From the NCBI GenBank assembly GCA_965208905.1, contig OZ242365.1, forward strand, positions 230,618 to 262,617: a stretch of 32,000 nucleotides of DNA. Direction: 5' to 3'. Of this stretch, positions 1,515 to 28,500 are shown piece after piece. The stretch comes from Nitrosopumilaceae archaeon (lineage in GTDB: Archaea > Thermoproteota > Nitrososphaeria > Nitrososphaerales > Nitrosopumilaceae). How positions within the stretch are numbered: position 1 is the stretch's first letter; every line of letters begins with the position of its first letter. Made by a program: the position numbers and the translations under genes. A model generated the notes under the pieces. It searched no databases. It had not been told where the DNA came from and worked only from the letters and a program-made list of their open reading frames with translations.

Positions 1515-2732
1515 CTACTCGGGGATGACAACTATGATGCCCAACTCGATCATGTATGAGATGGACTTTAGAAATTCATCATCAGAGATTGTACCGTCCG
1601 CATACCATAGGGCCAGTGGGACCAACCAGCGGGGTAGGTAGGGCTCACCTTTGTATCCAGTAGAGATCATATCAAGATCAGACAGTAGAAAGAGATCATC
1701 TAATATATCATCTTTAGACTCATCCAAAGCCCACTGCTCTGCATCATATCTTAGATATTCAGGTACAAGTGGTTCTAGTGTAGGGCCAGGAACGAACCCC
1801 CGTATAGTTATGACATCTTGAGATAGTTTTCGTATATCAAAAGCCAGATGCCACATCCCCAGCTCATCCACACTCTGTACAAAGTCTATCTCTGCTCCGT
1901 TTCTATACACCTGAAAAGTCTCCTGTCTAGTCACTGGAGGTATCTCAATGTTGGCAAATGTCTCAAACGTATAGCTGTTAGTAGTCTGTAATGTCAGTGT
2001 GGTGCCGTTCTCGGTAAATTCAGGCCTGTAAATCCATGCGCCAGACTCGTATCGAAGATTGTACGTCATATCGCCTCGCTGAGCCTTTATTGGGTATGTG
2101 GAGCGAGAGCTGGGAGCAAAGCAGCTATAATATGTTACATCATCAGATACAGCAGGGTCTGGATGCATTACAAATCTTCCCATTTGGCCTGGGTCTAATG
2201 GTCCTATCTCATGTAGACTCTGAGAGACATCCAAGGCTCCATCCATACCATGAACAACAGCCCATATTGTAATGTCTTGTACTGTGTAATTACCATCATT
2301 GATTACAAATCCAGAGAGGGTCCCATTTGTGTGCAGTACAAGTGTCTCATCATATATGACTGATACCCGGGGTGCATAGCCAGTAGTGTTATAATATTCA
2401 ACTTGTGGGTCCAACAGTACCAAATTATCATATGGTTGAGGTATCTGTGGCATCTTTACCTTGAATGGCAACTCGGAATTGGCAGGCAAAAAGTCATGGC
2501 GTATGGTGACTGTATATATGATATCACCATCAGTTGCTGAAATTGTAACGGTTGTGGATATGTCTACAGGTTCCGTATTCTTGACATTTCCAATTATGGT
2601 GTACATGCCGTTGGTATCTACATACGAAAGATATTCGTTGTTCGGGACATAGACTTCGGCTGTGGCACTCAGTGTACCCACAAGTATTATCATACATGAT
2701 AGTGGAACAGTTGTATATCTAGTCAAGATCAA
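1515..2732 (-). CDS. secreted/surface protein with one C-terminal W-rich ~38-aa module
   Basis: 405 aa with an N-terminal hydrophobic signal-like segment (CMIILVGTLSATA/EVY). The C-terminus LPRWLVPLALWYADGTISDDEFLKSISYMIELGIIVV matches the module repeated in the upstream gene. The TTG start overlaps the upstream stop by 14 nt. Confidence 0.75.
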   Translation of the reverse strand: MILTRYTTVPLSCMIILVGTLSATAEVYVPNNEYLSYVDTNGMYTIIGNVKNTEPVDISTTVTISATDGDIIYTVTIRHDFLPANSELPFKVKMPQIPQPYDNLVLLDPQVEYYNTTGYAPRVSVIYDETLVLHTNGTLSGFVINDGNYTVQDITIWAVVHGMDGALDVSQSLHEIGPLDPGQMGRFVMHPDPAVSDDVTYYSCFAPSSRSTYPIKAQRGDMTYNLRYESGAWIYRPEFTENGTTLTLQTTNSYTFETFANIEIPPVTRQETFQVYRNGAEIDFVQSVDELGMWHLAFDIRKLSQDVITIRGFVPGPTLEPLVPEYLRYDAEQWALDESKDDILDDLFLLSDLDMISTGYKGEPYLPRWLVPLALWYADGTISDDEFLKSISYMIELGIIVVIPE

Positions 2733-4248
2733 CAGGTATCACGCCCTTCTCCACCAAAAACGCAACACTGGCCAAAAACTCGGCATCGCTGACCAGTCCA
2801 TCTACCCACCATTGAGCCGTGCTTCGGACCCATGACTCTATATCACCGCCTGTATCAGATGAGACCGCATCAACCTGTATTACATCATTCTTAATTAAAA
2901 AGGCCATAGCCTGTACAAACGAATCATCATCTATATCACCTTCTGCCCACCACTGAACTGTATTACGGATCCAATCTGGTATCAAATCCATATTACCATT
3001 TGATGCGGTATTGAATACTATTGGTAGTGCTGCTGCCGCCAACTCGTTATCATCCACATTACTAAACTGTAAGAGGGCAGGTCCCTGTATATCCGAGGGC
3101 ACATCAAATACAATACTTACAGGTTTATTCTCATCGGATACGCCACTCCCCGAGTACAGTATAACATCATCATCATATACTACTTGTACATCGTATGGTA
3201 CTGATACCACCAAGCTGCTGGGAAAGACGTGTGTTATGTTAAATGATGCTGTGTTTGATTGTCCCGATACAGGTCCGTCCGGTTCTAAATCGATTAGTAT
3301 GCGGTACTGGCCATTGGTGGTCACCGAACTGTACACAGAGTCCAAAGACGGTTTGGCAGTGACTCTCATTACATCGATATCATCGGTCTGCTCGTATAAT
3401 CTAAACAGTTCACCCTGAGGTAGTACTAAATGCACTATCCTATAGTCCAAAAAGTAGTCATCTATAGTCACTATTCTAGGAGGCAAGTCAAGTCCGTTTA
3501 TTTGAACATCAAAATCAGAGACCAAAAGTTCCCCAAAGGTTATGGGCACAGCAAACTCTACATGTACCACATCTATCTGATTTAATATATCCTCATCCCA
3601 TTCAAAGGGCATCTCAAATGAGACGGTTCGCTGTGTGTCATCATATCTTATGTTATGTAATACATCATAGTACGTGACAAATCTCATGGTTTGTTCATTC
3701 CAGTATTGATCGTCTATCGTATGAAGAAACGTCATGGGTACAGTGACGGCGGAGTTAAACTGTAATGGTTCAGGTGGCGCATATCCCTGAGATGACAGTA
3801 TGGAGACATCCAGAGAATATAGGCCGCCATCAGCCAAAGCGGGCCCAGACATCATATACGTTACATCGCTTAAAATTCCAAAGAAGCCGCCAGAACTACG
3901 CTCATACAGTACGCCATCACCAGAGTCATCAGAGGTAAATTGTAGTTTTACGACACCATTATTTGCTTGAAACTCTTGCGCAAAGAGTTGGGTCTGTCCG
4001 CGTCGGGCATCGATGTATAATATAGTATCCCCTATAGGCTCTCTATTGTCATCGCGAATGAATGATACGGATACCAGAACTTCAGACTCTGTCTTTTCAG
4101 AGTCGACCATTACAGTGACTAGTTGATTGTTCATCAGTATGGGCGGTAACACCTCAGTACCAGTACCGTGTCCATGCGCCATAAAGTTTGGTGTCATAAT
4201 GACGCATAATGCCATTATCATACATGGTATCCATATAGTCTTACACAT
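2719..4248 (-). CDS. secreted/surface protein with two C-terminal W-rich ~38-aa modules
   Basis: The ORF is open to 4314 (TTG). Met at 4248 gives a signal-like MCKTIWIPCMIMALCVIMTPNFMA followed by HGHGTG. The two C-terminal modules are IPDWIRNTVQWWAEGDIDDDSFVQAMAFLIKNDVIQVD and IESWVRSTAQWWVDGLVSDAEFLASVAFLVEKGVIPVD. Confidence 0.75.
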   Translation of the reverse strand: MCKTIWIPCMIMALCVIMTPNFMAHGHGTGTEVLPPILMNNQLVTVMVDSEKTESEVLVSVSFIRDDNREPIGDTILYIDARRGQTQLFAQEFQANNGVVKLQFTSDDSGDGVLYERSSGGFFGILSDVTYMMSGPALADGGLYSLDVSILSSQGYAPPEPLQFNSAVTVPMTFLHTIDDQYWNEQTMRFVTYYDVLHNIRYDDTQRTVSFEMPFEWDEDILNQIDVVHVEFAVPITFGELLVSDFDVQINGLDLPPRIVTIDDYFLDYRIVHLVLPQGELFRLYEQTDDIDVMRVTAKPSLDSVYSSVTTNGQYRILIDLEPDGPVSGQSNTASFNITHVFPSSLVVSVPYDVQVVYDDDVILYSGSGVSDENKPVSIVFDVPSDIQGPALLQFSNVDDNELAAAALPIVFNTASNGNMDLIPDWIRNTVQWWAEGDIDDDSFVQAMAFLIKNDVIQVDAVSSDTGGDIESWVRSTAQWWVDGLVSDAEFLASVAFLVEKGVIPVDLD

Positions 4249-4469
4249 ACTGTATATTAACAAATCAAATGCTGATAAAAATCTCGCCATTCCCATGTCA
4301 AGGTCGTTGCGCAATGTATACGGTAAACTCCCAATTCATTGGGAAGCATCTCCCGTTGTAGGAGAGTCATACATAGAATTACTAGTAAATTTTGCCTATT
4401 TCAGGTATTAGTTCGTATTTGAGCAGGTTTGGCGCGCCCCGGGAGAACGCATTAAAATAATCAATGGTT

Positions 4470-5700: not shown

Positions 5701-5852
5701 CCCAAGTGAACCAATAAACTATCAGTAGTGTAATGGGTTACTTCCAGTCTTATCAGGAGGCCAGATTAGCTCTGAATAGTCCAGGTATGCGTAAAATCAC
5801 CATCAACCGCTTTCTAGAGAACCATATATTGCAATACTGTATAACGAATATC

Positions 5853-7169
5853 ATGCAAGAGATGCATGTGGGTCTTGATGACACCGACTCAACAAAGGGT
5901 ATGTGTACTACATTTTTGGCATATATAATAACAGAGAGACTCTTGAAAGACAGAGTCAAATTCTTGGAGTATCCAAAACTTGTACGCCTAAATCCCAATG
6001 TACCCTGGAAGACAAGGGGGAATGGCGCCGTTGCACTACACTTTGCAACAGATGATGTAGAGCGCGTACGGCAACACATAACAGAGATGGTATTATTATA
6101 TTCGGATTTACAGAATGGTGCAAATCCAGGTGTGGTATTTTTGGAGGGAGACAACATAACTTCACATATGAAAAGATTCAGTCAAGATGCATTACATAAA
6201 ATTGTAAAGATATCTGATGCGCAGAGTATAATTAAGCAAGCTGGTGGCGATACACTCTCTTTGGGGACCGGGATGGGAATAATCGGAGCTACTGCTGCCA
6301 TTGCATATGACTTTAGAGACAGTACGGTAGAGATTATCACATATAGGAGAGATACCAACCTTGGGACGCAGCGTCACATAGATCCCGACAGCGTACGAAT
6401 GATGCAAGAGAAGACTTTTCCGTATACGTTCAATAGTTATGATGATGACTCTGGCCATGTATTGATAGCGCCTCGAGGGCCGGATCCTGTCTTTTATGGA
6501 ATAAGAGGAGAATATCCCAACATATTGCATAGGGCATCATCGATGATAATACATAAGGAAAGATTACGAGGACATATGATATTTCGTACGAATCAAGGTA
6601 CCGGGGACCACCTGCAACATATCATAAAATCAGATGCAATGGAGCCGCATACATCTGGATGTGTACAAGGAGTGGTATCAAGTGAACCTCAAATCATACC
6701 AGGAGGTCACATGTGCTTTAACATACACAGTAAAGGTATATCCATACCTTGCTGGACATACAAGCCTACAAAACTTCCCCAAAAGTTATCAGGACTGATC
6801 TGTGGGGATCATCTCATTGTGGGCGGTGGCGTCAGGGCGGAATCAGTAGATCACTCCAGATCCATAAATATTGAAAATGTACATGTGCAGAGGCTAGCTC
6901 CACATATCACATATAGAAATCCTCGTTGTGAAAGATGCAATAAAAGCATGAAATCAAAGGGACGCGGGCAACACTTCTGGTGTATACGGTGCGGCGATAA
7001 GGCAGAGCACCGCCAACAGGTCTTTATTCCTAGAAAGATATCAGAGGGAGAGTACAGCGCCGTAATGACTGCGCATAGACACCTAACACGGCCACCTCAA
7101 AGACATAACAAGATAAACCGTATAACCTTTGAGCCAAATACAAACTGGGTCGCAGTTTATGAATACTGA
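5853..7169 (+). CDS. tiaS: tRNA(Ile2) 2-agmatinylcytidine synthetase TiaS
   Basis: The family-typical N-terminus is MHVGLDDTDSTKGMCTTF, with ATG at 5853 or 5862. There is a C-terminal zinc ribbon, CERCNKSMKSKGRGQHFWCIRCG. The 40-aa upstream extension of ORF 5733.. is probably not translated. Confidence 0.9.
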   Translation: MQEMHVGLDDTDSTKGMCTTFLAYIITERLLKDRVKFLEYPKLVRLNPNVPWKTRGNGAVALHFATDDVERVRQHITEMVLLYSDLQNGANPGVVFLEGDNITSHMKRFSQDALHKIVKISDAQSIIKQAGGDTLSLGTGMGIIGATAAIAYDFRDSTVEIITYRRDTNLGTQRHIDPDSVRMMQEKTFPYTFNSYDDDSGHVLIAPRGPDPVFYGIRGEYPNILHRASSMIIHKERLRGHMIFRTNQGTGDHLQHIIKSDAMEPHTSGCVQGVVSSEPQIIPGGHMCFNIHSKGISIPCWTYKPTKLPQKLSGLICGDHLIVGGGVRAESVDHSRSINIENVHVQRLAPHITYRNPRCERCNKSMKSKGRGQHFWCIRCGDKAEHRQQVFIPRKISEGEYSAVMTAHRHLTRPPQRHNKINRITFEPNTNWVAVYEY

Positions 7170-7259
7170 TAGCGGGGAGTAGATTTGAACTACTGGTTTG
7201 CGGGTTATGAGCCCGCCGGGATGACCTAGTCCATAGTTGTCTGACTTCCCCACCCCGCT
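7170..7259 (-). tRNA. initiator tRNA-Met (anticodon CAT) with an oversized D-loop (putative non-canonical intron)
   Basis: Hand-folded cloverleaf. Acceptor AGCGGGG/CCCCGCT has an A1:U72 pair. The anticodon arm is GCGGG-CTCATAA-CCCGC (three G:C pairs next to the loop). The T arm is AGTAG-TTCAAAT-CTACT. The D stem GGGA/TCCC encloses 25 nt instead of about 10. No CCA is encoded. Confidence 0.75.
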
Positions 7260-7750
7260 GATATTAGTGAGATGCACAGATATATCTATTTTTGGAAAAC
7301 GTCCCAGAGTTACACCATATGCAAAGGGGGATGAGTTCATTTGCGACTGCCGGTCATCCTTGTCTTGTGTCGTTAGTCTCAGAGTCACCAATGTACGTCT
7401 TGCCCGCCTAGATGAGAGTACTGGCTCTTGCGCAAACGCAGGTGTCCCCTGGCTTGCATTATTACACGTCACACCAAAGAACGACTGTACATGGAGCATC
7501 CCGTTCTCCGGTCAGTGCTTGATGGTTCATGGGGGGCCAATGCAAGAACCATAAGACACAGTATACAATATAGTCGATACACGGGGGCAGAGTCGCACAT
7601 ATTAGAGATCGGTCCCACTACCACCCGTTTTCAAAATGCCTCTCCAACCACCAGATGTAACTTGCCAGATATGTTTTAGTGAATTACCCAGTGTTTATCA
7701 CCATCCTAAACATGAGTGGTATATACTTATTGAACACAGCCGCTAATCAT

Positions 7751-8836
7751 ATGGTGGATAAGAGAGTACGTATCGCAGGCATAATAGGGGCACTGGCTTT
7801 CTCTGCATGGGTACTGACATCACCATCAGATCCCCTACCCATACCAGCACCGTCTGGTGAGGGACCTGAAGACTCTGTAGTCATATTGGCAGAAGATTTA
7901 GAGAGGCCAAGGCACATAGCTGTAATAGATGATTATGTATTTGTTACAGAGCGGGAAGGGCGTATACGATTGGTGGATAATGGGACACTACTCGAAAGGC
8001 CAGTAGCAGTACTGCGGCCTGTTGAGGACTTTGATATAGGACTCAGTGGCGTTGCAGTGCATCCAAACTATAACGAAAATGGATTGTTATACGCATACAT
8101 ATCCTACAGAGAAGATGGCACACTATACAATAAAGTCATGAAGATAACGCTGGTAGAGAATAGATTGGTGGATGCCATACCAATTATAGAGCATATACCG
8201 GGATCCCGATTCTCCAACGGTGGTGTAGTAAAGTTTGGGCCTGACGGTATGCTATACATAGGAACCGGTACACCTTCAGACTCATCCCATCTACCTCAGG
8301 ATATAGACTCGTTGGCTGGAAAGATACTGCGCATACATGATGATGGAGCCATACCAACAGATAATCCGTATAAAGATTCGCCGGTATACTCACTTGGTCA
8401 TCGTAACATCAGAGGCATGGACTGGGACAGTACAGGAAGATTATACATATCCGAAGAGGGTCCTGACAAAAACGATGAGATAAGCCTCATAACACCCGGT
8501 GAAAATTATGGTTGGCCAGAGAGTGAGTGTTATGGTTCAGGTTATGCCAATGCCACAATATGTTATGATCCTGCCATAGAGCCAGGGGGCATAGCATTCT
8601 CAAATGGTGTCGCGGCTACATCAGGTCATCTGTTGTTGGCATCATTACGGGGCGGTGGGCTCTTTGAGATAGACGTAAATGAAGGTCTATCATCACAAAA
8701 AATTCTCTTAAGTGGTGTTGGACGCATTCGGGATGTGGTCCAGAGTGAAGATGGCACAATATACGTGATAACCTCAAATACAGATGGTAAAGGATTTCCC
8801 GCCGAGAGTGATGATAGACTGCTGATGCTACGATAG
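7751..8836 (+). CDS. PQQ-dependent (soluble) glucose/sorbosone dehydrogenase family protein, membrane-anchored or secreted
   Basis: Beta-propeller sugar dehydrogenase motifs are present (GHRNIRGMDWD, GENYGWPE). The N-terminal anchor is MVDKRVRIAGIIGALAFSAWVL. The ORF is open from GTG 7679, so the start is uncertain (7679, 7712 or 7751). Confidence 0.85.
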   Translation: MVDKRVRIAGIIGALAFSAWVLTSPSDPLPIPAPSGEGPEDSVVILAEDLERPRHIAVIDDYVFVTEREGRIRLVDNGTLLERPVAVLRPVEDFDIGLSGVAVHPNYNENGLLYAYISYREDGTLYNKVMKITLVENRLVDAIPIIEHIPGSRFSNGGVVKFGPDGMLYIGTGTPSDSSHLPQDIDSLAGKILRIHDDGAIPTDNPYKDSPVYSLGHRNIRGMDWDSTGRLYISEEGPDKNDEISLITPGENYGWPESECYGSGYANATICYDPAIEPGGIAFSNGVAATSGHLLLASLRGGGLFEIDVNEGLSSQKILLSGVGRIRDVVQSEDGTIYVITSNTDGKGFPAESDDRLLMLR

Positions 8837-8928
8837 CACAGGCCAGATGTGGTCTTGAATTATACTGGACAGTTGTAAAAGACAACAGGTCAAGATGGCC
8901 TCCAATATCAAGGGGCGCCGGGCGCATA

Positions 8929-8936
8929 CATTATCA
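8929..8936. repeat. flanking direct repeat (putative TSD), left copy, element 1
   Basis: CATTATCA directly abuts the left TIR. An identical 8-mer abuts the right TIR. Confidence 0.8.
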
Positions 8937-8961
8937 GGTTCCTCCCGCAAAGTCGGGTGAT
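8937..8961. repeat. left terminal inverted repeat of element 1
   Basis: GGTTCCTCCCGCAAAGTCGGGTGAT, 25/25 reverse-complementary to 10528-10552. Confidence 0.95.
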
Positions 8962-8984
8962 GGTTGATGTGTTGTTGGATAGTG

Positions 8985-8992
8985 TTAAATAC
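8985..8992 (+). promoter_or_regulatory. TATA-like box TTAAATAC upstream of tnpB-1
   Basis: An AT-rich octamer lies 18 nt before ATG 9011. The same octamer lies 20 nt before the ATG of tnpB-2. Confidence 0.4.
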
Positions 8993-9010
8993 GTTATTAA
9001 ACCGTACTAT

Positions 9011-10528
9011 ATGATGGCTCTTGTAAAAAATAGTAGGGCAATAACACGTACATACACAAAAAATTTGGGTATGCAGTACGTGTTTGAGCATGTCAGGAAG
9101 GTGGCAGAAGTGGCGTACATTATAGCAGATAACACGGGGAAGAATACCTATGGTGTTAACGCATTGATGTATCGTACAATGCGCGGCCCTGACCCCAAAG
9201 TACATTCGTCCATAACGCAGACCGCCATACGGGACGGGGTTGCCGCCCATAACACGTACAATACAAAGACTGCGCAGGGCATGAAGGTATCTGAGCCCGT
9301 GTTTCGCAATCCGGTTGTAAAGTTGAAAAACCAAAATTGGAGGCTGAATCCGATAGCGGGTGGATATATGACTATTGCAAATGTTGGCTCATCAAAACAC
9401 CCACATATGATAGCAATTCCCATCTCTTCAGATGTGGTACGCCGCATAGGACAAAATGAGTTGGGCGAGTTGTGGATCACGCCGACCACATACACCATAA
9501 CGTATTACAACAAAGTGCCCGAGGTTGACAAGCCCCACCCATACGGCAAGTCAGAGATTATCGAGTTGCTTACGGATGTGGGGTATGTGGGCGGCACACC
9601 AAAGGATGTAATTGGCGTAGATATCAATGAGAAGAACATCACCGTAGGAGATAAAGATACAATGGTACAGTTTGATCTATCCGATACGATACAGGCCATT
9701 GAAGACGCAAAGACTGAGGATGCAAACAATACGTATACACGTACACATGATAATGCTGTATATGCGGCACGTACCGGAAGGCGTGTTGTATACAAGAAAG
9801 AGGAGGAGCGCAGAGAAAAACAACAAGTTGTGTGTGGCGGTCCCAAGTTACACAGCAAACTCAAACGCAGATACAGAAAACTCAAGAGGGAGGGCAAACA
9901 CAAGAGGGCCGCGGAGATAAAGAAGCAGATGAATAAATGCATATTAAACATACAGCATAACCACACAAAGTCAAAGAAGAATGCTAAAAAGCGCAAGGTG
10001 GCCAAAGCCGTGCGCCATCATGAACATGTGCTGAATGTGATGGCACTATGCATCGCACAGTGGGCCGCACAGTCTGGGTGTTTGGTGGTGTTGGAGGATT
10101 TAACCCGCATATCGTATAATTGGCAGAAGGGTGGAAGGTTTGGACGTATGATGCGTCGCAGGTTATATTCTGCCATGATGCGAAAGGCATCGGATTTAAT
10201 TTATGAAAAGTCCCGGTTTTTGGGAGTGGAGGCATTACATATGCGTCCACACAACACATCCAAGCTATGTGCTGCGTGCAGAACCATACTAACTGGAACT
10301 TATCATAGAAAAGACTGCACCCGCTGCCATATAGTTGGCGTAGATCGTGACGTCAACGCAGTGGAGAATATACGGCGAACAAGTGCCGTATCCCGATATG
10401 GTCGTCAGGTTTCGGCCAGTCTGGGCGAAGTCCGTCGTGGTGTGGATGTAATCCTCGATCCCACACCACTCATACAGGGTTGCTGGAGCAACTGGGCTGA
10501 CAGACTATCCCGCATAGCGGGGGTGTAA
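9011..10528 (+). CDS. tnpB: TnpB (RuvC-like RNA-guided endonuclease family, OrfB/IS1341-type)
   Basis: RuvC motifs are GVDINEKN (D), VVLEDL (E) and VDRDVNAVENI (D). The zinc finger is CAACRT...CTRCH. The ORF is open from GTG 8957/ATG 8960 inside the left TIR. ATG 9011 is preferred because of the upstream TATA-like box and the N-terminus MMALVKNSRAITRTYTK. Confidence 0.9.
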   Translation: MMALVKNSRAITRTYTKNLGMQYVFEHVRKVAEVAYIIADNTGKNTYGVNALMYRTMRGPDPKVHSSITQTAIRDGVAAHNTYNTKTAQGMKVSEPVFRNPVVKLKNQNWRLNPIAGGYMTIANVGSSKHPHMIAIPISSDVVRRIGQNELGELWITPTTYTITYYNKVPEVDKPHPYGKSEIIELLTDVGYVGGTPKDVIGVDINEKNITVGDKDTMVQFDLSDTIQAIEDAKTEDANNTYTRTHDNAVYAARTGRRVVYKKEEERREKQQVVCGGPKLHSKLKRRYRKLKREGKHKRAAEIKKQMNKCILNIQHNHTKSKKNAKKRKVAKAVRHHEHVLNVMALCIAQWAAQSGCLVVLEDLTRISYNWQKGGRFGRMMRRRLYSAMMRKASDLIYEKSRFLGVEALHMRPHNTSKLCAACRTILTGTYHRKDCTRCHIVGVDRDVNAVENIRRTSAVSRYGRQVSASLGEVRRGVDVILDPTPLIQGCWSNWADRLSRIAGV

Positions 10529-10552
10529 TCACCCGACTTTGCGGGAGGAACC
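10360..10552 (+). ncRNA. putative omega-RNA (reRNA) scaffold region of element 1 (boundaries approximate)
   Basis: By analogy with characterised TnpB loci, the guide RNA scaffold overlaps the 3' end of tnpB and the right end. This segment is clearly GC-richer (36/60 in block 10381-10440) than the 5' part of the element (21/60 in block 9001-9060). Confidence 0.3.
10528..10552. repeat. right terminal inverted repeat of element 1
   Basis: ATCACCCGACTTTGCGGGAGGAACC, 25/25 reverse-complementary to 8937-8961. Confidence 0.95.
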
Positions 10553-10560
10553 CATTATCA
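10553..10560. repeat. flanking direct repeat (putative TSD), right copy, element 1
   Basis: CATTATCA directly abuts the right TIR. Confidence 0.8.
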
Positions 10561-10673
10561 AAGATGTTTGTAATGTATGAATGAAATTTACATATTTACA
10601 AGACCGCCATCGACCAGGCGTCAGCACACATAAAATAACAAATCTGTCATAGAGTTTTAATATAGACAAAAAA

Positions 10674-11840
10674 ATGATAAAAAGTGTGGAAAGCGTATGT
10701 GTTTTGGGTGCGGGAAGTACAAAGTATGGAAAGTTAGATGATAGCATAGTAGACATAACCGTACAGGCATCAGCAGATGCAATAAACAGTGCAGGAATAG
10801 AGCCTGCCGACATAAAGGCCGGATACATATCCAATGTATTTGGCATAGCAGACAAACAAGTGCATCTAGGACCTGTAATTATGAGTAACCTTGGTATTTC
10901 AGACAGACCATCATTATCCATAGAGTCCGCATGTGGCAGTGGCTCTGTCTCGTTTAGGGAGGCATATGCCAATGTGGCGGCAGGATTCTACGACTGCCTA
11001 TTGGTAGCAGGTACAGAGAAGGTCACCCACACCGGTACCGAATGGACTACCACGTACTTTGCATACTGCTCAGACTTCTTCCATGAAGGGTCTGCAGGCG
11101 CATCGTTCCCAGGACTGTTTGCAGCCATGGCACGTGCCTACCTGACCGAATTTGGCGCCACCGAAGAGGACTTTGCGCAGGTTGCAGTAAAAAACCACAA
11201 CAATGGAATACTCAATCCAAAGGCGCATTTGAGAAAGAAGATAACCATAGATGATGTTATGAAATCGGCCGTGGTAGCCAGTCCGCTCAAGCTGTACGAC
11301 TGCTGTCCATTCTCAGACGGGGCCAGTGCCGTCATATTATGTACAGAAGAGTTTGCCAAGAAGACAGGCGGCGACTACATAAAAGTAACAGGATCCGGAC
11401 GTGGAGGTTCGCCAGCAGCATTGCAGGGACGGGAGCACATTACAACAATTCCCAGTACAGTAATAGCATCAAGATCAGCCTACAAGATGGCAGGTATAAC
11501 TGCCAAAGATGTGGACTTTGCCGAAGTACATGACTGTTTTACAATAGCCGAAATAGTAGATACTGAAGATTTGGGATTCTTTGAGAAGGGTAAGGGTGTG
11601 GAAGCTGCTCGAGAAGGTAGAACCGCACTAAATTCAGACATATCAATAAACCCCTCTGGAGGTCTAAAGTCAAAGGGACATCCCATTGGTGCTACCGGTG
11701 TGGGGCAAGTAGTTGAGATGTATGATCAGTTAACAGGCCAAGCAGGTCCCCGGACCGTACATGATGCACATATAGGACTTACTCATAACTTTGGAGCCAC
11801 CGGGGCCAGCTGCGCCGTCCATATCTTTGAAAGTGTTTAA
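10674..11840 (+). CDS. thiolase-like acetyl-CoA C-acetyltransferase (archaeal type)
   Basis: 388 aa with the active-site Cys context SIESACGSGS, plus GHPIGATG and NFGATGASCAV near the C-terminus. Confidence 0.9.
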   Translation: MIKSVESVCVLGAGSTKYGKLDDSIVDITVQASADAINSAGIEPADIKAGYISNVFGIADKQVHLGPVIMSNLGISDRPSLSIESACGSGSVSFREAYANVAAGFYDCLLVAGTEKVTHTGTEWTTTYFAYCSDFFHEGSAGASFPGLFAAMARAYLTEFGATEEDFAQVAVKNHNNGILNPKAHLRKKITIDDVMKSAVVASPLKLYDCCPFSDGASAVILCTEEFAKKTGGDYIKVTGSGRGGSPAALQGREHITTIPSTVIASRSAYKMAGITAKDVDFAEVHDCFTIAEIVDTEDLGFFEKGKGVEAAREGRTALNSDISINPSGGLKSKGHPIGATGVGQVVEMYDQLTGQAGPRTVHDAHIGLTHNFGATGASCAVHIFESV

Positions 11841-11841
11841 A

Positions 11842-12207
11842 ATGTCCACTCGTCAAAAATTTATTGATGCCGCCCAAAGTGGTAAAGTACTACTATTACA
11901 GTGCAAGAGATGTAATACAATGCATACATCTACGGTGTGTTTCTGCAAAAAGTGTGGCTTCTCAAAGTTTGAGGACAAGGTAGTTCAAGGGATTGGCAAG
12001 GTAGTCACATATACCATAATTACTGTTCCACCGGCGGGTTTTGAAGAGTATACACCCTATGCGTTTGTTGTTGTAAACCTTGATGATGTAGACCAGCGAA
12101 TATCTGGGTTCATGGGAGGGATCTCTACACCTGCAGATTTACCAGTGGGGTCTGCAGTCCGTGTATATGGATACGATGAGCGCGGTCTATTGATAAAGTT
12201 TCACTAA
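11842..12207 (+). CDS. DUF35 OB-fold/zinc-ribbon protein (thiolase partner)
   Basis: Starts 1 nt after the thiolase stop. It has the zinc ribbon CKRCNT...CKKCG followed by an OB-fold-like segment. This is the typical archaeal thiolase-DUF35 gene pair. Confidence 0.85.
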   Translation: MSTRQKFIDAAQSGKVLLLQCKRCNTMHTSTVCFCKKCGFSKFEDKVVQGIGKVVTYTIITVPPAGFEEYTPYAFVVVNLDDVDQRISGFMGGISTPADLPVGSAVRVYGYDERGLLIKFH

Positions 12208-12238
12208 CTTTATAAAATGATAAAGGATCATTCCTTGT

Positions 12239-12424
12239 ATGGTAATCGATGTTTATTGTGGAAAGTGCAATACAAAAATAGGATCAACAAATATACTAAA
12301 GCCCATCAAGCAGATATCTGGAGTCGAAGATGGAAAGTGTCCATCCTGCGGACATAAAGTATCACTGTCAAACTTCACATTGGATGTAGTAAAGTCCACC
12401 TCCAAGTATGGCTCTCTAGAGTAA
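12239..12424 (+). CDS. small zinc-ribbon protein
   Basis: 61 aa with CGKC...CPSCG (4 Cys). It is co-directional with the upstream pair. Confidence 0.45.
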   Translation: MVIDVYCGKCNTKIGSTNILKPIKQISGVEDGKCPSCGHKVSLSNFTLDVVKSTSKYGSLE

Positions 12425-12574
12425 CATGTGATATAATGGGCCATACATCTCATACACCACACAAGATATCGGCTACATCTAAGGAATCATCATTTTCTAA
12501 TGTTATAATAATCACCAATCTCTACAAAATGAGTAGAACCTAACTATTAATTACAACTTTGATGTAACCAGTCC

Positions 12575-14473
12575 ATGGATAAGTGGGTTGGCGATATGTT
12601 TGAAGAGCCAGAGAACGAGTCGGTCATGCCAACCCGGGTCAAAAAGATCTTTTCAGCCATGGACAGTCCCCAGAGATTGAGAATTCTTAGGGCACTAAAC
12701 TCAAAAGGTCCGCTCAGTTATTCAGAGCTTAAAAGACTTGCCGGCTTTCATCCCAAAAGTGAGAGTGGTAAGTTCGCATATCATCTGCGCAGCTTGGACA
12801 ATCCGGGTCTGGTATTGTTGGACAAAAATACCAAACGGTACGACATTACTAATCTAGGAAAGATGTCCATAAGTCTGGTAAAACAGATAGAAGAAAAGTC
12901 CATTCATGAGTCCAGTCGAATGTACGTGAGAACATCTCATCAGGCCATAGAAGAGTTTAACGCAGATAAGATAATGCGATCCTTGGTACGTGAGGGGAGT
13001 ATGCCCATGGATCTTGCGCAGCGCATCACCGAAGAGACGGAGAACCGCATATACAAGTATCAGACATCTCATCTTACAGGGCCTCTAATTCGAGAGTTGG
13101 TGAATGCCGTACTTTTGGAGGGCGGACATGAAGGCTATAGGAGCAAGATGGCCCGGTTGGGCATTCCCGTGCATGATCTACAAGAGATGCTGACAGATGT
13201 CGATAGCGTGATGGCCGGTTTAGAACACATAATGCTAACTGCAGGGCGGCGGGTATTTGTAGAGTATCTACTAACTAATACATTGCAGCGAGATGTGGCA
13301 GACATGTATCTGTCAGGTGGCATTCACATATCAAATCTGGCTTTATGGCCACTGGCACCAGATACAATATTTCTGAATATCAACGACATCATACCGCAGA
13401 GTGACATAAAGATATCAAGTCTAGTCAAGATGCTCAACCATGTATTGTGGGAGGCATCCAGTGAAGTTGTAATAGATGGCATATCCAATATCGACTCAAT
13501 ATCGCAGTATATGGCAGACACTCTCATCATGATGCACGCACCCCACGGTGCGGCCCACCTGTCACTATATGTACCATTGAACTCAAAGTCCATACATGGC
13601 ATATTAGAGGCGTACAAGACCTATGTCAAAAGTGTGGACACTCCCACAGCAGGGCTTGTCATAGATACAAAAGATACCAAGATTGCAGAATTTTCAGACA
13701 TATTATCAGATATTATAAAATGTAACGGAGTCATAACTATTACCAAACAAAAGTCTGGTAAAAGTGGTATCATAGACAGTAACGATAAGGGGGCATCAGC
13801 AAAGATGCACTCGCTGGCCATAAATCTGCCTAGTTTGGCTTACGAGTCAGAGGGTGATGAGGCGTACTTTCGGGCAAAGTTAGCAATGAGTATGGAACCC
13901 ATAATATCAGCATTGGAGTCAAGACGAAAGGATATTGCCGACATTACACGTTGGGGGCTTAATCCGATTCTTGCAGAGAACATCATAAAGCAAGAGAAAA
14001 GGTCTGTAAATATCACTATCAATTTAGTGGGAATGCATGAGGCCATGACTCACATTTTAGGAGACGATTACCCGCCCAAAATGGTGCTCAAAGTATTAGA
14101 GACTGCCAACCATGTTGTATCAAAGATTAGTGGTAAGACAGGTCTCCCCATACTGATATCCATGATACATGCAGATGGCATCTCCCGTCTGGTGGAATTA
14201 GACGCAAAGAAGTACGGTAAAGACAAGGTGTATAATATGCAGGATGGTAGATATCAGCACGGTGTCAGTATAGATGTACGTCAGACCATAATACCAGGAC
14301 AACTAGATCGCATAATATCAAATGCAAAGAAGGCTGCTGCTGTTTTGGGTGGAGGCCTGTACACCGAATTGTCATACCAAAAGAGTACGCCGCAGTCAGA
14401 TATCATACGTGGAATAGAGTTGTTATCAGATCATCTCAACTTTACAGTAAAGCTCAAACACGACTCATCTTAA
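12575..14473 (+). CDS. winged-HTH (ArsR-like) / ATP-cone / NrdD-like domain fusion protein
   Basis: The N-terminal wHTH is RLRILRALNSKGPLSYSELKRLAG...FAYHLRSL. The ATP-cone-like segment is MYVRTSHQAIEEFNADKIMRSLVREG...LIRELVNAVL. The large C-terminal domain has an NrdD-like LSGGIHISNL motif but no recognisable C-terminal glycyl-radical motif. Confidence 0.8.
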   Translation: MDKWVGDMFEEPENESVMPTRVKKIFSAMDSPQRLRILRALNSKGPLSYSELKRLAGFHPKSESGKFAYHLRSLDNPGLVLLDKNTKRYDITNLGKMSISLVKQIEEKSIHESSRMYVRTSHQAIEEFNADKIMRSLVREGSMPMDLAQRITEETENRIYKYQTSHLTGPLIRELVNAVLLEGGHEGYRSKMARLGIPVHDLQEMLTDVDSVMAGLEHIMLTAGRRVFVEYLLTNTLQRDVADMYLSGGIHISNLALWPLAPDTIFLNINDIIPQSDIKISSLVKMLNHVLWEASSEVVIDGISNIDSISQYMADTLIMMHAPHGAAHLSLYVPLNSKSIHGILEAYKTYVKSVDTPTAGLVIDTKDTKIAEFSDILSDIIKCNGVITITKQKSGKSGIIDSNDKGASAKMHSLAINLPSLAYESEGDEAYFRAKLAMSMEPIISALESRRKDIADITRWGLNPILAENIIKQEKRSVNITINLVGMHEAMTHILGDDYPPKMVLKVLETANHVVSKISGKTGLPILISMIHADGISRLVELDAKKYGKDKVYNMQDGRYQHGVSIDVRQTIIPGQLDRIISNAKKAAAVLGGGLYTELSYQKSTPQSDIIRGIELLSDHLNFTVKLKHDSS

Positions 14474-15178: not shown

Positions 15179-15319
15179 ATTTTTTTATTTTCTTGTCTAT
15201 TTATAAATCATAATTGAGCAGAAGAGCGTTTTATAATTTATCACCTTGGTCAACACCACCTAACTTTCAACGTATCAAAGTCATACAAGTTGTGATGACG
15301 TAATAGATATCTCTTGATT

Positions 15320-15895
15320 ATGCGCACTCCCCTAGGACACATCTTTGTATATGAAGACAGGTATATAATTCCCCCATACACCACATGTACAGTGTATATT
15401 GTATCTGTGTTGTTGTGTATTTGTATTATATTGGTAGCAGGAGATGCATATGCGCACTCTCTATTCAACTCTGCTGAAGAGTTCTATGGTGGATATAGGG
15501 TACAAGTAGCAACAACTCCTGAATTTCCCCAGATAGACGAGATCTCGACAATTCTAATCCGTGTGACAGACGAAGACTTTGAGGAGGTTGATAGCTTCAC
15601 CATGGGTCTGCGATTCTTTTATAATGATCTACAAGTAGATGCTGTGCCGCCCCAGAGCCACCAGGGAGGACACTGGGATATCGACTACATCTGGAAGAAA
15701 GAGGGAAATCACATAGTGATGGTGGATATGTATAGTGTGAATGGAGATAGCACAGACATATTGACATATACGTTCAACATGGGAACTCAGAGTCCGTTTG
15801 GATATATCTTCATATCCGCCATAACCGTGGGCGCCCTTACATTTACAGGAATAATGACATACATCTATCTTCCAAAGATACTGCGGCGCCGTTGA
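15320..15895 (+). CDS. membrane-anchored extracytoplasmic protein, predicted mature N-terminal His (possible metal-handling Ig-like protein)
   Basis: Signal-like VSVLLCICIILVAGDAYA/HSLF is followed by a beta-rich ~130 aa domain. The C-terminal TM is FGYIFISAITVGALTFTGIMTYIYL, followed by basic residues. It lies next to the oxidase/heme A synthase operon. Confidence 0.6.
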   Translation: MRTPLGHIFVYEDRYIIPPYTTCTVYIVSVLLCICIILVAGDAYAHSLFNSAEEFYGGYRVQVATTPEFPQIDEISTILIRVTDEDFEEVDSFTMGLRFFYNDLQVDAVPPQSHQGGHWDIDYIWKKEGNHIVMVDMYSVNGDSTDILTYTFNMGTQSPFGYIFISAITVGALTFTGIMTYIYLPKILRRR

Positions 15896-19979: not shown

Positions 19980-19987
19980 CTTAGTCA
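19980..19987. repeat. flanking direct repeat (putative TSD), left copy, element 2
   Basis: CTTAGTCA abuts the left TIR. It matches 21459-21466 at 7 of 8 positions. Confidence 0.65.
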
Positions 19988-20015
19988 TGGGCTGTGACGT
20001 TATCTGCGCGTGTCC
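19988..20015. repeat. left terminal inverted repeat of element 2
   Basis: TGGGCTGTGACGTTATCTGCGCGTGTCC, 28/28 reverse-complementary to 21431-21458. Confidence 0.95.
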
Positions 20016-20077
20016 CAAGACAGCGCGTTTGACAACCCGTCGTATAGTTGAGTAGACAAATCTCCTGAATACACCGC

Positions 20078-20085
20078 TTAAATAC
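20078..20085 (+). promoter_or_regulatory. TATA-like box TTAAATAC upstream of tnpB-2
   Basis: Lies 20 nt before ATG 20106. It is the same octamer as upstream of tnpB-1. Confidence 0.4.
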
Positions 20086-20105
20086 CACCGAACTCATTGT
20101 ATAAT

Positions 20106-21404
20106 ATGAAGTACAAAGACGAAAAGTACGTCATAAAGACTCTACAGTACCGTCTTAAGATATCCACCAGACTCACTCGATACTTTAACTCAATGTATTC
20201 GGAATCCCACATATGGCTCAATGCAGGAATAAGGGCGCGTAAGGCTGGACTGACGGTGTTTGACACCAATAAGATAGCCACTATATGCCAGACCATCCCC
20301 CAGGCCTGGGTTCGCGGCGCCATACGTGAAGGCCACAAGATAGAAGGCTGTACGCATGTAAGATATGGTAGGAAGGTTTACCCCCTGTTTAGTAACGTGC
20401 CACTCGGTAAAAAATCCAAAGGTACAACGGTGTATTTCCCAAGATGTAATATACCATTCAAACTACAGAAAGGGCATCTACCCAATACATCCCAATCATA
20501 TAAGATAGTGGATGTCACGAACACTACAGACAAGGAGAGGCAGTTCGAACTACATGTAACTATACGTGAGCATGTCCCGGACCGCGTAGCGACGGGTGTA
20601 CATGCTGGTATTGATATGGGTGGTAAGCACACGCTTGTTGTTGGAAAGTCCGATGGTAGTATTGCCATGCTGACATTACGTGAGAAGGATACTATACGGA
20701 ACATAGCGCGTATGCAAAAGAAGATGAGTAGGTGCAAACTTCACTCCCGCAAGTGGCGCAACCTGCATGATACATTAAACAGCATATACCGTAAGTTGGG
20801 AAATAGACAGAAAGACAAGCTGCGCAAGTTCTCAAAGAAACTAATGCGGCAGTGTGATAGAATAATCATGGAGGGGATGAACCTCCGTACAATGACGACC
20901 AAGGGTCCCGGGCAGACGCCCAAAAATCGTACGATGCGACAAAGTCATTGTGGTGAGGCGCGGGAGCACATTTCACAACAATACCTACGATATAATGTAG
21001 AATATACGGAGATAAACCCAAAGAATACCTCAAAGCAGTGCTGTATGTGCGGTAGTTTGAATACGTGGCGCAAGAGCAGTAAGTTTAGGTGTCATAACTG
21101 CGGTATAGTGTGTCATGCGGACATCAATGCGGCATTCAACATACTTTTCGCTTTTCGTATTATACAGTGGAGTAAGCGCGCTCAGGGCGTTTATTCCCTA
21201 CAAAACAAGGCTGGAATGGTCTTGAGAGGAAAGATACATCTCGCGACACTTACTATACCCAGTGTCGTTGGTGATGTGATGGCCGGTACAGGCTGTCACC
21301 AGGCTAGGCGTCAAAACCCGGCTGACAATGAACGTCTCTTGGAAACTCCTCTGGATGGTAATTTGCCAACATTTGTTGTACTGGGCGCAGGCCCAACTGT
21401 ATAG
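20106..21404 (+). CDS. tnpB: TnpB (RuvC-like RNA-guided endonuclease family), second lineage
   Basis: RuvC motifs are GIDMGGKH (D), IIMEGMNL (E) and HADINAAFNI (D). The zinc finger is CCMCGS...CHNCG. The ORF track start 20097 is TTG; the first ATG is at 20106. Confidence 0.9.
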   Translation: MKYKDEKYVIKTLQYRLKISTRLTRYFNSMYSESHIWLNAGIRARKAGLTVFDTNKIATICQTIPQAWVRGAIREGHKIEGCTHVRYGRKVYPLFSNVPLGKKSKGTTVYFPRCNIPFKLQKGHLPNTSQSYKIVDVTNTTDKERQFELHVTIREHVPDRVATGVHAGIDMGGKHTLVVGKSDGSIAMLTLREKDTIRNIARMQKKMSRCKLHSRKWRNLHDTLNSIYRKLGNRQKDKLRKFSKKLMRQCDRIIMEGMNLRTMTTKGPGQTPKNRTMRQSHCGEAREHISQQYLRYNVEYTEINPKNTSKQCCMCGSLNTWRKSSKFRCHNCGIVCHADINAAFNILFAFRIIQWSKRAQGVYSLQNKAGMVLRGKIHLATLTIPSVVGDVMAGTGCHQARRQNPADNERLLETPLDGNLPTFVVLGAGPTV

Positions 21405-21458
21405 CAGCTGTATTGAGTACGCGCATGTATGGACACGCGCAGATAACGTCACAGCCCA
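21230..21458 (+). ncRNA. putative omega-RNA (reRNA) scaffold region of element 2 (boundaries approximate)
   Basis: A GC-richer 3' segment (33/60 and 31/60 in blocks 21241-21360) overlaps the ~90-aa post-RuvC tail of the ORF and the right end. The call is by analogy with characterised TnpB loci. Confidence 0.3.
21431..21458. repeat. right terminal inverted repeat of element 2
   Basis: GGACACGCGCAGATAACGTCACAGCCCA, 28/28 reverse-complementary to 19988-20015. Confidence 0.95.
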
Positions 21459-21466
21459 CTTGGTCA
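21459..21466. repeat. flanking direct repeat (putative TSD), right copy, element 2
   Basis: CTTGGTCA abuts the right TIR. Confidence 0.65.
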
Positions 21467-28107: not shown

Positions 28108-28118
28108 AATATTATAAT
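28108..28118 (-). promoter_or_regulatory. TATA-like box for the ATP-grasp/M20 gene
   Basis: The minus strand reads ATTATAATATT, centred about 32 nt upstream of GTG 28081. It lies between the gene and the tnpB remnant terminus. Confidence 0.35.
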
Positions 28119-28122
28119 AGAT

Positions 28123-28470
28123 GGTTCCTCCCGCAAAGTCGGGCGATTACACCCAGATAATGTGATGTCGCGCCGCAGCTTCAGTTGGCCGCTACACGCC
28201 TTGGGGCCGAGCTTTTCCAAACTGGCTACCCCTATGTTAGCCCCAGCATTACAGTCAGCGTGATCCGAGTGGCCGCACCGCTGCACCAGAGCTCCCTACC
28301 GTCCCGGTTGTCCTTGTGGATGCACCCACACGGACATCAACGCTGGCTGGTGTAAGCTACCATGACCCAAATGATACCACCGATACGCTGGTAAGATAGC
28401 AGAAGAGCCAGTAACCCCAGCATTGCTCGGGTATCTACTTGTTGAGTCCGGATTTTCGACTCAAGATTAT
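28123..28470 (-). pseudogene. decayed 3' portion of a tnpB element (third copy), retaining the element-1-type terminus
   Basis: The minus-strand translation gives ...GGIIWVMVAYTSQR*CPCGCIHKDNRDGRELW (in-frame stop). After a frameshift it reads CQRCGHSDHADCNAGANIG (RuvC-III). 28123-28154 matches the reverse complement of 10521-10552 at 31/32 positions. The 5' part and the left end are absent. Confidence 0.7.
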
Positions 28471-28500
28471 AATAACATCACACAATACAAGAGATTAGTA

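Follow-up and report, generated by a model that had tools for sequence, protein, structure and literature searches.

How does a gene for a TnpB-type RNA-guided nuclease come to lie in an element with perfect terminal inverted repeats and a target-site duplication, and with no transposase gene inside? We addressed this question for the element at positions 8937–10552 of a 32,000-nucleotide stretch of DNA (hereafter the window) from a sponge-symbiont archaeon. The evidence supports the assignment of this element to a transposase-less tnpB element in an IS6-like DDE shell. The explanation as a whole, a non-autonomous element derived from an IS6-like transposon and combined with an RNA-guided TnpB module, has in our estimate a probability of about 0.8.

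Boundaries, copies and the IS6-like shell

The ends of the element are sharply defined (Table 1). Its 25-bp terminal inverted repeat is perfect, the left copy (GGTTCCTCCCGCAAAGTCGGGTGAT) being the exact reverse complement of the right one, and no repeat match with up to three mismatches turned up when the window was shuffled 100 times with its dinucleotides preserved. Identical copies of the 8-mer CATTATCA stand directly outside both ends; given the base composition of the window, chance would place two identical 8-mers at a set spacing about once in 60,000 trials. Both features had been described in an earlier note made from the sequence alone, and both were confirmed to the base. The element encloses one intact tnpB gene and no transposase gene, and no transposase gene was found among the 20 other large open reading frames of the window. 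Nor was a Y1 gene found in the window or, according to the gene tables, in any locus retrieved, in agreement with the earlier statement that no TnpA is present.

Table 1. Features of the tnpB element and of related sequences in the window
Feature	Position	Strand	Remarks
Solo IS6-like repeat relic	5792..5823	-	GGTTCTCTAGAAAGCGGTTGATGG...; upstream of the TiaS gene
ATA, one-sided motif	8926..8928	+	adjoins the left duplication copy on its 5' side; putative target-adjacent motif (TAM) of TnpB
Left target-site duplication copy	8929..8936	.	8 bp, CATTATCA; identical to 10553-10560; other family copies have other 8-mers
Left terminal inverted repeat, IS6-like	8937..8961	+	GGTTC-CTCCC-GCAAAG...; perfect 25-bp repeat; compared with consensus GGTTCTGTTGCAAA
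AT-rich leader	8962..9010	+	~50 nt; probably the tnpB promoter region
tnpB	9011..10528	+	divergent TnpB/Cas12f-like RNA-guided nuclease, 505 aa; PF07282; RuvC D/E/D and zinc finger; Cas12f/TnpB matches by sequence and fold
Conserved RNA structure core	10385..10504	+	guide-RNA scaffold candidate; overlaps the 3' end of the ORF; covariation
Stems enclosing the scaffold hairpins	10420-10423/10501-10504 and 10430-10433/10494-10497	+	
Main scaffold hairpins	10437-10447/10458-10469 and 10478-10483/10488-10493	+	
Terminal hairpin	10509..10545	+	5' arm 10509-10525; stop codon in the loop; 3' arm is the inner right repeat
Right terminal inverted repeat	10528..10552	-	perfect 25-bp repeat
Right target-site duplication copy	10553..10560	.	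8 bp, CATTATCA
Predicted guide segment	10553..10572	+	duplication copy plus right flank; predicted from known TnpB guide-RNA architecture (PMC10691335) and the position of the TA motif
Relic of the right end of a further element	28123..28460	-	same 32-bp terminus (1 mismatch); joined to the decayed C-terminal part of a different TnpB, of classical type, ..CGHSDHADCNAGANIG..

The tnpB family is multi-copy, with many truncated copies, and copies with tnpB only far outnumber those linked to a transposase. GGTTC-type repeats are present in all 16 family insertions examined, and where their sequence changes from clade to clade, it changes at both ends together. Exact duplications of 8 or 9 bp flank 11 of the 16 (8 bp in the window and at eight other insertions, 9 bp at two), two more match at 7 of 8 positions, and three (L019, L010/L018 and L022) have none; the missing ones could stem from copy-in inside a single molecule or from recombination among copies. 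The 13 exact or near-exact duplications all differ in sequence. The further copies that the earlier note proposed to look for are thus independent insertions with GGTTC-type repeats and different 8-bp duplications, and its solo repeats and MITEs also exist. Apart from the relic upstream of the TiaS gene, these are short MITE-like derivatives that keep mainly the RNA-coding right end (581 bp at L012, 202 bp at L002) and a 430-bp MITE without the tnpB right end, also at L002. A third copy of the 25-bp repeat in the window lies at 28123–28147, with one mismatch. The search for an empty site led to the L012 site, which is syntenic with window positions ~15212–15379, where the intergenic DNA is too diverged to give a clean empty allele. 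A metagenome scan with the family alignment returned three matches only, distant and unusable, and scans of viral contigs returned no relative, a single 17–19-nt match looking like chance. An exact 21-mer of the repeat had 0 matches in the representative-genome collection, in which the source species evidently has no genome bearing this repeat. A second tnpB-only element, with different repeats, lies at 19988–21458. At least two different TnpB lineages are framed by inverted repeats within these 32 kb.

Several lines of evidence connect the shell to IS6-like transposons. The repeat of L001 agrees with the published IS6/IS26 consensus at 14 of 14 positions, and the window repeat follows the same frame with a spacer one nucleotide longer; that of clade C reads GGTTCTCTCGAAAA. 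Duplications of 8 bp are also given for the IS6/IS26 family in passages of the IS6 review. The comparison with known insertion sequences that had been suggested for this repeat accordingly ended in a match to a published consensus. In relatives, the same kind of ends goes together with a transposase. L021 is a 2698-bp unit with the exact duplication TGGACAAG, in which one repeat pair surrounds tnpB and an IS6-like transposase gene oriented divergently to it. In L023 an intact transposase gene (P0039) is bounded by repeats of the same kind, and tnpB abuts this unit just beyond its left repeat. L024 contains an IS6-like element without tnpB, whose 26-bp repeat is perfect and whose 8-bp duplication is exact. 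The related transposases (~400–460 aa) consist of a SWIM zinc-finger N-terminus, an HTH and a DDE_Tnp_IS240 domain. Pfam PF13610 was above cutoff in five transposases of the IS6-like group, including P0039 of L023, and the best NCBIfam match was "IS6 family transposase" (NF033587) at 76–97 bits, below its cutoff of 125. Full-length IS6-like transposases also occur on three large contigs that bear tnpB-only copies (2,128,233, 2,214,775 and 2,127,936 bp, matched by length).

These results bear out the DDE-type shell that the earlier note had proposed. Its suggestion of a DDE transposase gene bounded by the same repeat held in part: relatives link a transposase to repeats of the same kind, and among the loci whose ends were read no transposase gene was seen between copies of the exact 25-bp repeat. 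The transposase link is found in relatives, and in the window genome such an enzyme may act in trans. L024 was also considered as a transposase-plus-tnpB locus and was rejected as such, being an insertion-sequence cluster without tnpB.

The nuclease gene and the RNA-coding right end

The sole gene of the element encodes a divergent member of the TnpB/Cas12f group. The protein scores 28.3 bits with Pfam PF07282 (zinc-finger/TNB domain), above the cutoff of 26.3. Among 24 homologues, the RuvC residues D204, E362 and D447 do not vary, nor do the cysteines of the first CxxC (C420 and C423), and those of the second (C436 and C439) are at least 90% conserved; this agrees with the catalytic triad and zinc finger that had been read from the sequence. 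The RuvC region aligns to that of Cas12f and TnpB structures. With an AlphaFold2 model (pLDDT 72, pTM 0.43), the top Foldseek matches were Cas12f (E 3e-12), Fanzor2 and ISDra2 TnpB over ~500 alignment columns, with low TM-scores (~0.27), probably because domain placement differs. The modelled fold appears Cas12f/TnpB-like and without an extra domain, and the protein falls with Cas12f and TnpB, not with Fanzor. The curated NCBIfam TnpB models (guided_TnpB, IS200_TnpB and IS607_TnpB) were not reached, and the NCBIfam matches were weak and sub-threshold (Cas12f2, 28 bits against 450, and TIGR01766). The clade is narrow and divergent, with just six full-length 50%-identity representatives in 1.84 billion proteins. 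As for the start codon, the mechanical ORF begins at GTG 8957, gene calls differ among the closest relatives, and homologues at a greater distance begin at or near ATG 9011. The description of an ORF running from repeat to repeat is therefore correct for the mechanical ORF and fails if translation starts at ATG 9011; at the other end, the stop codon abuts the right repeat.

The right end of the element carries a conserved RNA structure. RNAalifold on 14 elements gave 33 consensus pairs, 18 of them with compensatory changes, and 93.5% of cells were paired, compared with 32–41% in controls with partners slid by 1–3 columns. This covarying structure in the last ~180 nt is probably a guide-RNA scaffold, although no Rfam family matched anywhere in the window. 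RNAalifold found no consensus in the last 50 nt, because MAFFT failed to align the hairpin arms across clades; the terminal hairpin was assessed by per-sequence folds with shuffled controls. In clades A, D and E it folds with a better energy than controls whose upstream part was shuffled, and the gain is weak or absent in clades B and C. Single-sequence folds leave AGGAACC (10546–10552) unpaired. The inner part of the right repeat doubles as an arm of the last hairpin of the structure.

A one-sided motif and the proposed movement of the element

A short motif precedes the insertions on one side only. At 13 independent insertions, the left flank has T at position −2 and A at −1 in every case and T at −3 in nine, and the chance of TA at all 13 is ~1e-16. 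The right flank has nothing comparable, and TA is never mirrored. The motif lies outside the duplication, 8 bp from the element end. An alternative in which TA belongs to a 10-bp duplication was rejected, as it is the element end GGAACC, and not TA, that stands before the right copy. The TA/TTA set comprises every insertion of the three closest clades; two more distant clades have CCAC instead of TTA, from three sites only. TA/TTA stands where the target-adjacent motif of TnpB would lie, and since it precedes the target in every insertion of the closest clades, TTA is proposed as the putative TAM.

The observed boundaries, duplications, RNA structure and motif would fit the following course of events. 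The ancestor was probably an archaeal IS6-like DDE transposon that lost its transposase and kept TnpB with a guide-RNA (omega-RNA) scaffold. An IS6-like transposase from elsewhere in the genome would recognise the GGTTC...GCAAA repeats and insert the element by an 8-bp staggered cut, which would leave the CATTATCA duplication. The last ~180 nt would be transcribed into a structured RNA, whose final hairpin would be built with the inner half of the right repeat, and if transcription ran on past the right end, the duplication copy and the right flank would be appended as a guide. In an unoccupied allele, the left-flank bases would precede the target of this guide, with TTA as the TAM. TnpB may then cut empty alleles, and recombination would copy the element in or guard against its loss. 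Guide use, motif role and homing are read from sequence patterns in this scheme. Its weak points are the three insertions without duplication, the CCAC of the distant clades and the weak terminal hairpin in clades B and C. Moreover, IS6-type transposition is thought to be replicative and so would leave no excision gap for TnpB to repair, which makes the benefit of TnpB less obvious than in IS605.

The motif could instead reflect a target preference of the IS6-like transposase complex, with TnpB adapted to it or irrelevant to it, a reading that we consider possible and on balance doubtful. The motifs of TnpBs linked to IS605, IS607 and IS630 do mirror transposase target preference (PMC13565253). 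One genome has five copies, each with TTA, a pattern that choice at insertion explains more easily than later selection, and the 430-bp L002 MITE has TTA 8 bp from one end; the TA motif would also arise if a DDE transposase had an intrinsic preference for one side. However, the target preferences of DDE transposases are usually symmetrical, and the repeats here are symmetrical over ~25 bp, yet the motif keeps to the 5' side of tnpB throughout. At the only tnpB-less IS6-like insertion with a duplication, in L024, the two places where the motif could stand read GCC and ATG, so that it is absent whichever way the element is read. In addition, passages of the IS6 review on other aspects of the family mention no marked target specificity.

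Two further explanations would dispense with the IS6-like partner. The divergent TnpB-like protein might itself be the transposase, its RuvC domain having the DDE-type RNase H fold; it would cut at the repeats and integrate with an 8-bp stagger, and therefore no partner would be needed. The predominance of tnpB-only copies, the narrow and atypical clade and the failure to detect a partner whose ends match those of the window subfamily would suit this idea. We nevertheless regard it as very improbable, as the repeats and the duplication length are IS6-like, relatives have IS6-like transposases within or next to the same ends, such enzymes occur in the same genomes, and the modelled fold is that of Cas12f/TnpB with no added domain; we also know of no TnpB that catalyses strand transfer. 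Even less credible is an ordinary IS200/IS605 element of the IS1341 group, moved by a Y1 TnpA in trans, with the repeat as a hairpin feature and the 8-mer as a coincidence. Such an element would also have tnpB as its only gene, a short conserved motif on the 5' side, as IS605 elements do, and a hairpin in its right end. Against it stand the different duplications at 13 insertions, repeats that are terminal, symmetrical and matched to a DDE family consensus, a motif that does not adjoin the end, and the fact that no Y1 gene was found in the window or in any locus retrieved.

With an IS6-like shell and an RNA-guided TnpB module as the preferred reading, the view of the nuclease gene as cargo needs adjustment. 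The tnpB gene does lie inside a DDE shell, but the term understates its part, as the right repeat is included in the RNA structure and the one-sided motif points to an active role of TnpB. A more speculative extension, which we offer tentatively, is that TnpB and its guide RNA shape the location of a DDE transposon. TTA-bound TnpB might bias the site and orientation of integration, or only TTA-adjacent insertions might be able to cut empty alleles, persist and spread; either way, the right repeat would be both a transposase site and an arm of the guide-RNA hairpin. The use of TnpB to transposons without clean excision is an open question, for which this family is a compact natural test case, with a variable 8-bp duplication, a motif outside it and locked to one side, and derivatives that are transposase-linked, tnpB-only or RNA-only. 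If the motif is the TAM of TnpB, RNA-guided cutting can couple to a replicative DDE transposon, and the candidates for editing would gain archaeal nucleases that are small and divergent and have a short motif of the TTA type.

Comparison with known systems

TnpB has been found together with DDE transposons before, and the novelty claimed for this pairing in the earlier note is weaker than stated. According to the main text of a 2023 study (PMC10691335), DDE-associated TnpBs occur with inverted terminal repeats, and solo TnpBs are moved in trans; Altae-Tran et al. 2023 (PMC10691335) distinguish there the branches DDE-1 to DDE-6. The element resembles these systems, as far as their main texts describe them, in having tnpB inside a transposon with symmetrical repeats and its 3' end near the transposon end, and in the presumed movement of solo TnpBs in trans (PMC10691335, PMC13565253). 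The DDE partners of TnpB named in a review are ISL2, IS630 and IS1031 (PMC13565253), whereas the partner here is IS6-like (PF13610); this difference refers to the main texts, and an overlap with DDE-1 to DDE-6 is possible. An IS6-like partner and a one-sided target motif are undescribed in the main texts of the literature found. Prokaryotic DDE-TnpB pairings are rare, for which the 2026 review gives only tentative reasons (PMC13565253).

The element shares with IS6/IS26, including the archaeal "IS6" elements, a repeat that starts with GG and resembles the consensus, 8-bp duplications, DDE_Tnp_IS240 in relatives and the occurrence of MITEs. Some copies lack duplications, as copy-in within one molecule would give in the IS6/IS26 mode described in passages of the IS6 review. 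Unlike IS6/IS26 members, the window element has no gene for a DDE (IS240/IS26-type) transposase, and the related transposases are long, with the SWIM N-terminus, and stay below the NCBIfam IS6 cutoff. Harmer and Hall place archaeal "IS6" elements in a separate family, outside IS6/IS26 proper. The consulted passages of the IS6 review list one passenger gene in the whole family and do not mention TnpB.

With the IS1341 group of IS200/IS605, the element has in common a TnpB-type RNA-guided nuclease as its sole gene and a scaffold that lies across the 3' end of tnpB and the element's right end. In contrast, it has terminal inverted repeats and an 8–9-bp duplication instead of asymmetric subterminal hairpins and duplication-free insertion, its conserved motif lies away from the end instead of adjoining it, and its protein does not reach the NCBIfam TnpB models. 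Fanzor transposons are similar in carrying a TnpB homologue in a DDE-type element with inverted repeats and duplications, and Fanzor2 is among the fold matches; the archaeal host and the protein grouping set the window element apart. In Fanzor/DDE elements the TAM is taken to include the left duplication copy as well as the flank, and IS630 duplicates a fixed TA (PMC13565253). The window family differs from both in its eight variable duplicated bases and its conserved motif outside the duplication. Finally, inverted repeats and a duplication without a transposase are typical of MITEs and mobile insertion cassettes, and the RNA-end derivatives of L012 and L002 parallel the mobilised standalone omega-RNAs described in the main text of PMC10691335; unlike all of these, the window copy still encodes an intact nuclease.

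Terminal repeats, duplications and gene of the element family

The left repeat of the focal element is the exact reverse complement of its right repeat, and shuffled controls of the window gave zero 25-mer matches at up to 3 mismatches, bearing out the perfect 25-bp inverted repeat described in an earlier note. The identical 8-mer which that note placed directly outside each end is likewise present; given the base composition of the window, the chance that an 8-mer recurs exactly at a fixed offset is ~1/60,000. The sole sizeable gene within the element encodes a protein of 505–523 aa that reaches the Cas12f1-like TNB domain of Pfam, and the best matches of its predicted structure model are Cas12f, Fanzor2, and TnpB. 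Conservation across 24 homologues extends to the RuvC D/E/D residues and the zinc finger; the assignment as a TnpB with an intact catalytic triad and zinc finger holds. An open reading frame running from repeat to repeat had also been proposed. The stop codon is indeed adjacent to the right repeat, but more distant homologues start near ATG 9011, and the frame therefore probably does not extend to the left repeat.

The window belongs to a sponge-derived, ammonia-oxidising archaeon of Cenarchaeum type, and the same insertion is present at the orthologous locus (L003) of Cenarchaeum sp. SB0675_bin_21. Compared over window 5960–13528, the two sequences show 53 differences, of which 47 lie inside tnpB (9253–10406), six in 5.9 kb of flanks, and none in the repeats. 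This distribution suggests gene conversion among paralogous tnpB copies.

Ends and duplication are a family trait. We sampled 16 distinct insertions, two short derivatives included, spanning five protein clades with 33–95% identity to the window protein. All 16 carry GGTTC-type terminal inverted repeats, whose sequence differs by clade with the pairing of the ends kept. An exact 8-bp duplication flanks nine of them (the focal element, L002 CATGAGTT, L016 TGTTATCT, the L002 MITE, L021 TGGACAAG, and four of five copies within a single Nitrosopumilaceae genome). Of the other seven, two are flanked by exact 9-bp duplications, two by 7/8 matches, and three by no duplication. Further copies, for which the earlier note proposed a search, exist as a multi-copy family with varied 8-mers, and one 2.13-Mb contig holds ~20 distinct paralogues, full or truncated. 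The family is narrow, with only six full-length 50%-identity representatives in 1.84 billion proteins.

Coordinates of the focal element, other elements, and derivatives (window or named homologous or related locus)
Sequence	Position	Strand	Feature	Flanks or duplication
Window	8937-10552		Focal tnpB-only element; repeats 8937-8961 (GGTTCCTCCCGCAAAGTCGGGTGAT) and 10528-10552	CATTATCA, each side
Window	~10385-10504		Predicted RNA core, within C-terminal coding region	
Window	19988-21458 (19980-21466 with flanks)		Second tnpB-only element; perfect 28-bp repeat TGGGCTGTGACGTTATCTGCGCGTGTCC at 19988-20015 and 21431-21458	CTTAGTCA / CTTGGTCA, 7/8 match
Window	20097-21404		Classical TnpB, 435 aa	
Window	28123-28460	minus	Right-end relic; 32-bp IS6-like terminus of focal element, 1 mismatch	ATTATAATA at 28111-28119 and 28467-28475
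Window	5792-5823	minus	Solo IS6-like repeat relic GGTTCTCTAGAAAGCGGTTGATGGTGATTTTA, intergenic, upstream of TiaS gene	
Window	1515-4314	minus	Two neighbouring large ORFs of 405 and 531 aa, without Pfam matches (E <= 0.001)	
L002	139-340		202-bp MITE, chimera of tnpB right end and another element's end	CGTTATGA, exact
L002	6743-7172		430-bp MITE-like element, ~45-bp repeats	none
L012	654-1234		581-bp internal-deletion copy, whole RNA region kept	TATATCTTA, 9 bp
L016	2883-4027; 11058-11521		IS3-family element; further classical TnpB gene	
L024	1900-12100		Dense insertion-sequence cluster	

IS6-like ends and transposase partners

The IS6/IS26 family has the inverted-repeat consensus GGTTCTGTTGCAAA (PMC6807381) and duplicates 8 bp at its target (PMC6807381; PMC7986276). 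The repeat of the related locus L001 agrees with this consensus at 14/14 positions, and the window repeat keeps the consensus frame with a spacer longer by one base. At L021, tnpB shares one 2698-bp unit, bounded by repeats and flanked by an exact duplication, with an IS6-like DDE transposase gene; this gene is oriented away from tnpB and, in this copy, is frameshifted and N-terminally deleted. At L023, the intact transposase P0039 (438 aa) lies inside its own pair of GGTTC-type repeats, and tnpB sits immediately beyond the left repeat of that pair. L024 holds an element of this transposase group that lacks tnpB; its repeat, again GGTTC-type, is perfect over 26 bp, and its exact duplication is TCTCCACG. 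Transposases of this group pass Pfam PF13610; their best NCBIfam match is 'IS6 family transposase', with a score under the cutoff. The 2.13- and 2.21-Mb contigs that carry tnpB-only copies also encode full-length IS6-like transposases, and at L008 a decayed transposase gene is located 1.3 kb away from the tnpB copy. The earlier note had deduced a DDE-type mechanism from repeats and duplication in an element lacking its own transposase; its observation is confirmed, and the IS6-like ends and the transposase-linked relatives L021 and L023 support the mechanism. We infer that the window's own subfamily is mobilised in trans by an IS6-like transposase.

In the right-end relic of the window, the terminus is joined to the decayed C-terminus of a different, classical TnpB lineage (..CGHSDHADCNAGANIG..); its left end was not found. 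The same terminus on two unrelated tnpB genes argues that the mobility machinery would read the terminus, not the gene. The solo repeat relic falls within a spurious N-terminal extension of the mechanical TiaS ORF. The TnpB of the second tnpB-only element matches PF01385, PF07282, and NCBIfam guided_TnpB (113 bits vs cutoff 100). The 28-bp repeat of that element is unrelated to the IS6-like repeat, and its 8-bp duplication and GGGCTG start may point to the IS1595 family.

The L024 cluster, on a 2.07-Mb thaumarchaeal contig, contains IS3, IS110, and IS1595-type genes, a second IS6-like element, and an IS5-type insertion within an IS6-like transposase gene. At L016, 770 bp separate the IS3-family element from the tnpB copy, and the classical TnpB (OrfB_IS605 and TNB, 451 aa), from the same 2.1-Mb genome, starts at the locus edge.

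Structured right end and one-sided motif

Aligning 14 elements over their final 180 nt yielded a consensus RNA structure of 33 pairs, 18 of them with compensatory changes. Paired bases fill 93.5% of pair cells, compared to 32–41% with partners slid by 1–3 columns, and the covariation score is 0.58 vs 0.07–0.14 in the slid controls. Downstream of the core, single-sequence folds predict a terminal hairpin for every element, in which the inner part of the right repeat forms the 3' arm, the sequence just upstream the 5' arm, and the stop codon lies in the loop, leaving 6–7 end bases (AGGAACC) unpaired; against shuffled controls, three clades give clear support and two give weak support. This predicted layout matches a TnpB guide-RNA scaffold, which stops at the edge of the transposon and leads into flanking sequence (PMC10691335). 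The right repeat appears doubly used, in DNA and as an arm of the predicted RNA hairpin. The MITEs for which the earlier note suggested a search were found, and the scaffold-like layout accounts for short derivatives keeping the right end: the last ~250 bp persist in the 581-bp element and the last ~75 bp in the 202-bp MITE. The repeats of the 430-bp element match the left end of the L016 tnpB variant.

We oriented all 13 insertions from the three closest clades by the direction of tnpB. The dinucleotide immediately 5' of the left duplication copy is TA in 13/13 (~1e-16 by chance), the base before it is T in 9/13, and the first duplicated base, read from the duplication sequences, is always a pyrimidine. 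In these 13, no mirrored TA signal occurs 3' of the right copy, and no other flank position holds comparable information. Two derivatives retaining only the RNA end follow the TA rule in the correct orientation. If the guide begins right after the right end, its target in the empty allele would be the duplication sequence plus the right flank. The motif lies exactly 5' of this predicted target, and we therefore read TTA as the probable TnpB target-adjacent motif. Such a T-rich 5' motif suits the Cas12f-like relatives of the focal protein. Alternatively, the one-sided TA/TTA could be a preference of the transposase complex, although the single tnpB-less insertion (L024), one data point, lacks it.

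Two more distant clades have CCAC at the equivalent place (3 sites). It lies 8–9 bp upstream of the left end in all three insertions of these clades (L010/L018, L022, and L017). The insertions at L010/L018 and L022, from different clades and samples and without duplication, both have right flanks beginning (C)CACGGCT. The pattern could mean that those clades use another target motif or have a right end that extends further.

Relation to known TnpB transposons

The general kind, a TnpB within a DDE transposon, is already known from Altae-Tran et al. 2023, who described six branches of TnpB associated with DDE transposases, every one bearing inverted terminal repeats, along with solo TnpBs that share those ends and are presumably mobilised in trans (PMC10691335). 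A 2026 review names ISL2, IS630, and IS1031 as TnpB partners (PMC13565253), and the IS6 review describes one passenger gene in the entire family without mentioning TnpB (PMC7986276). Our full-text literature search returned zero papers joining TnpB with IS6-type elements. As far as checked, the IS6-like partner, the variable duplication with a motif outside it, and a repeat that serves in both DNA and RNA are unreported. The one-sided motif and the repeat shared between DNA and RNA somewhat raise the interest of the focal element.
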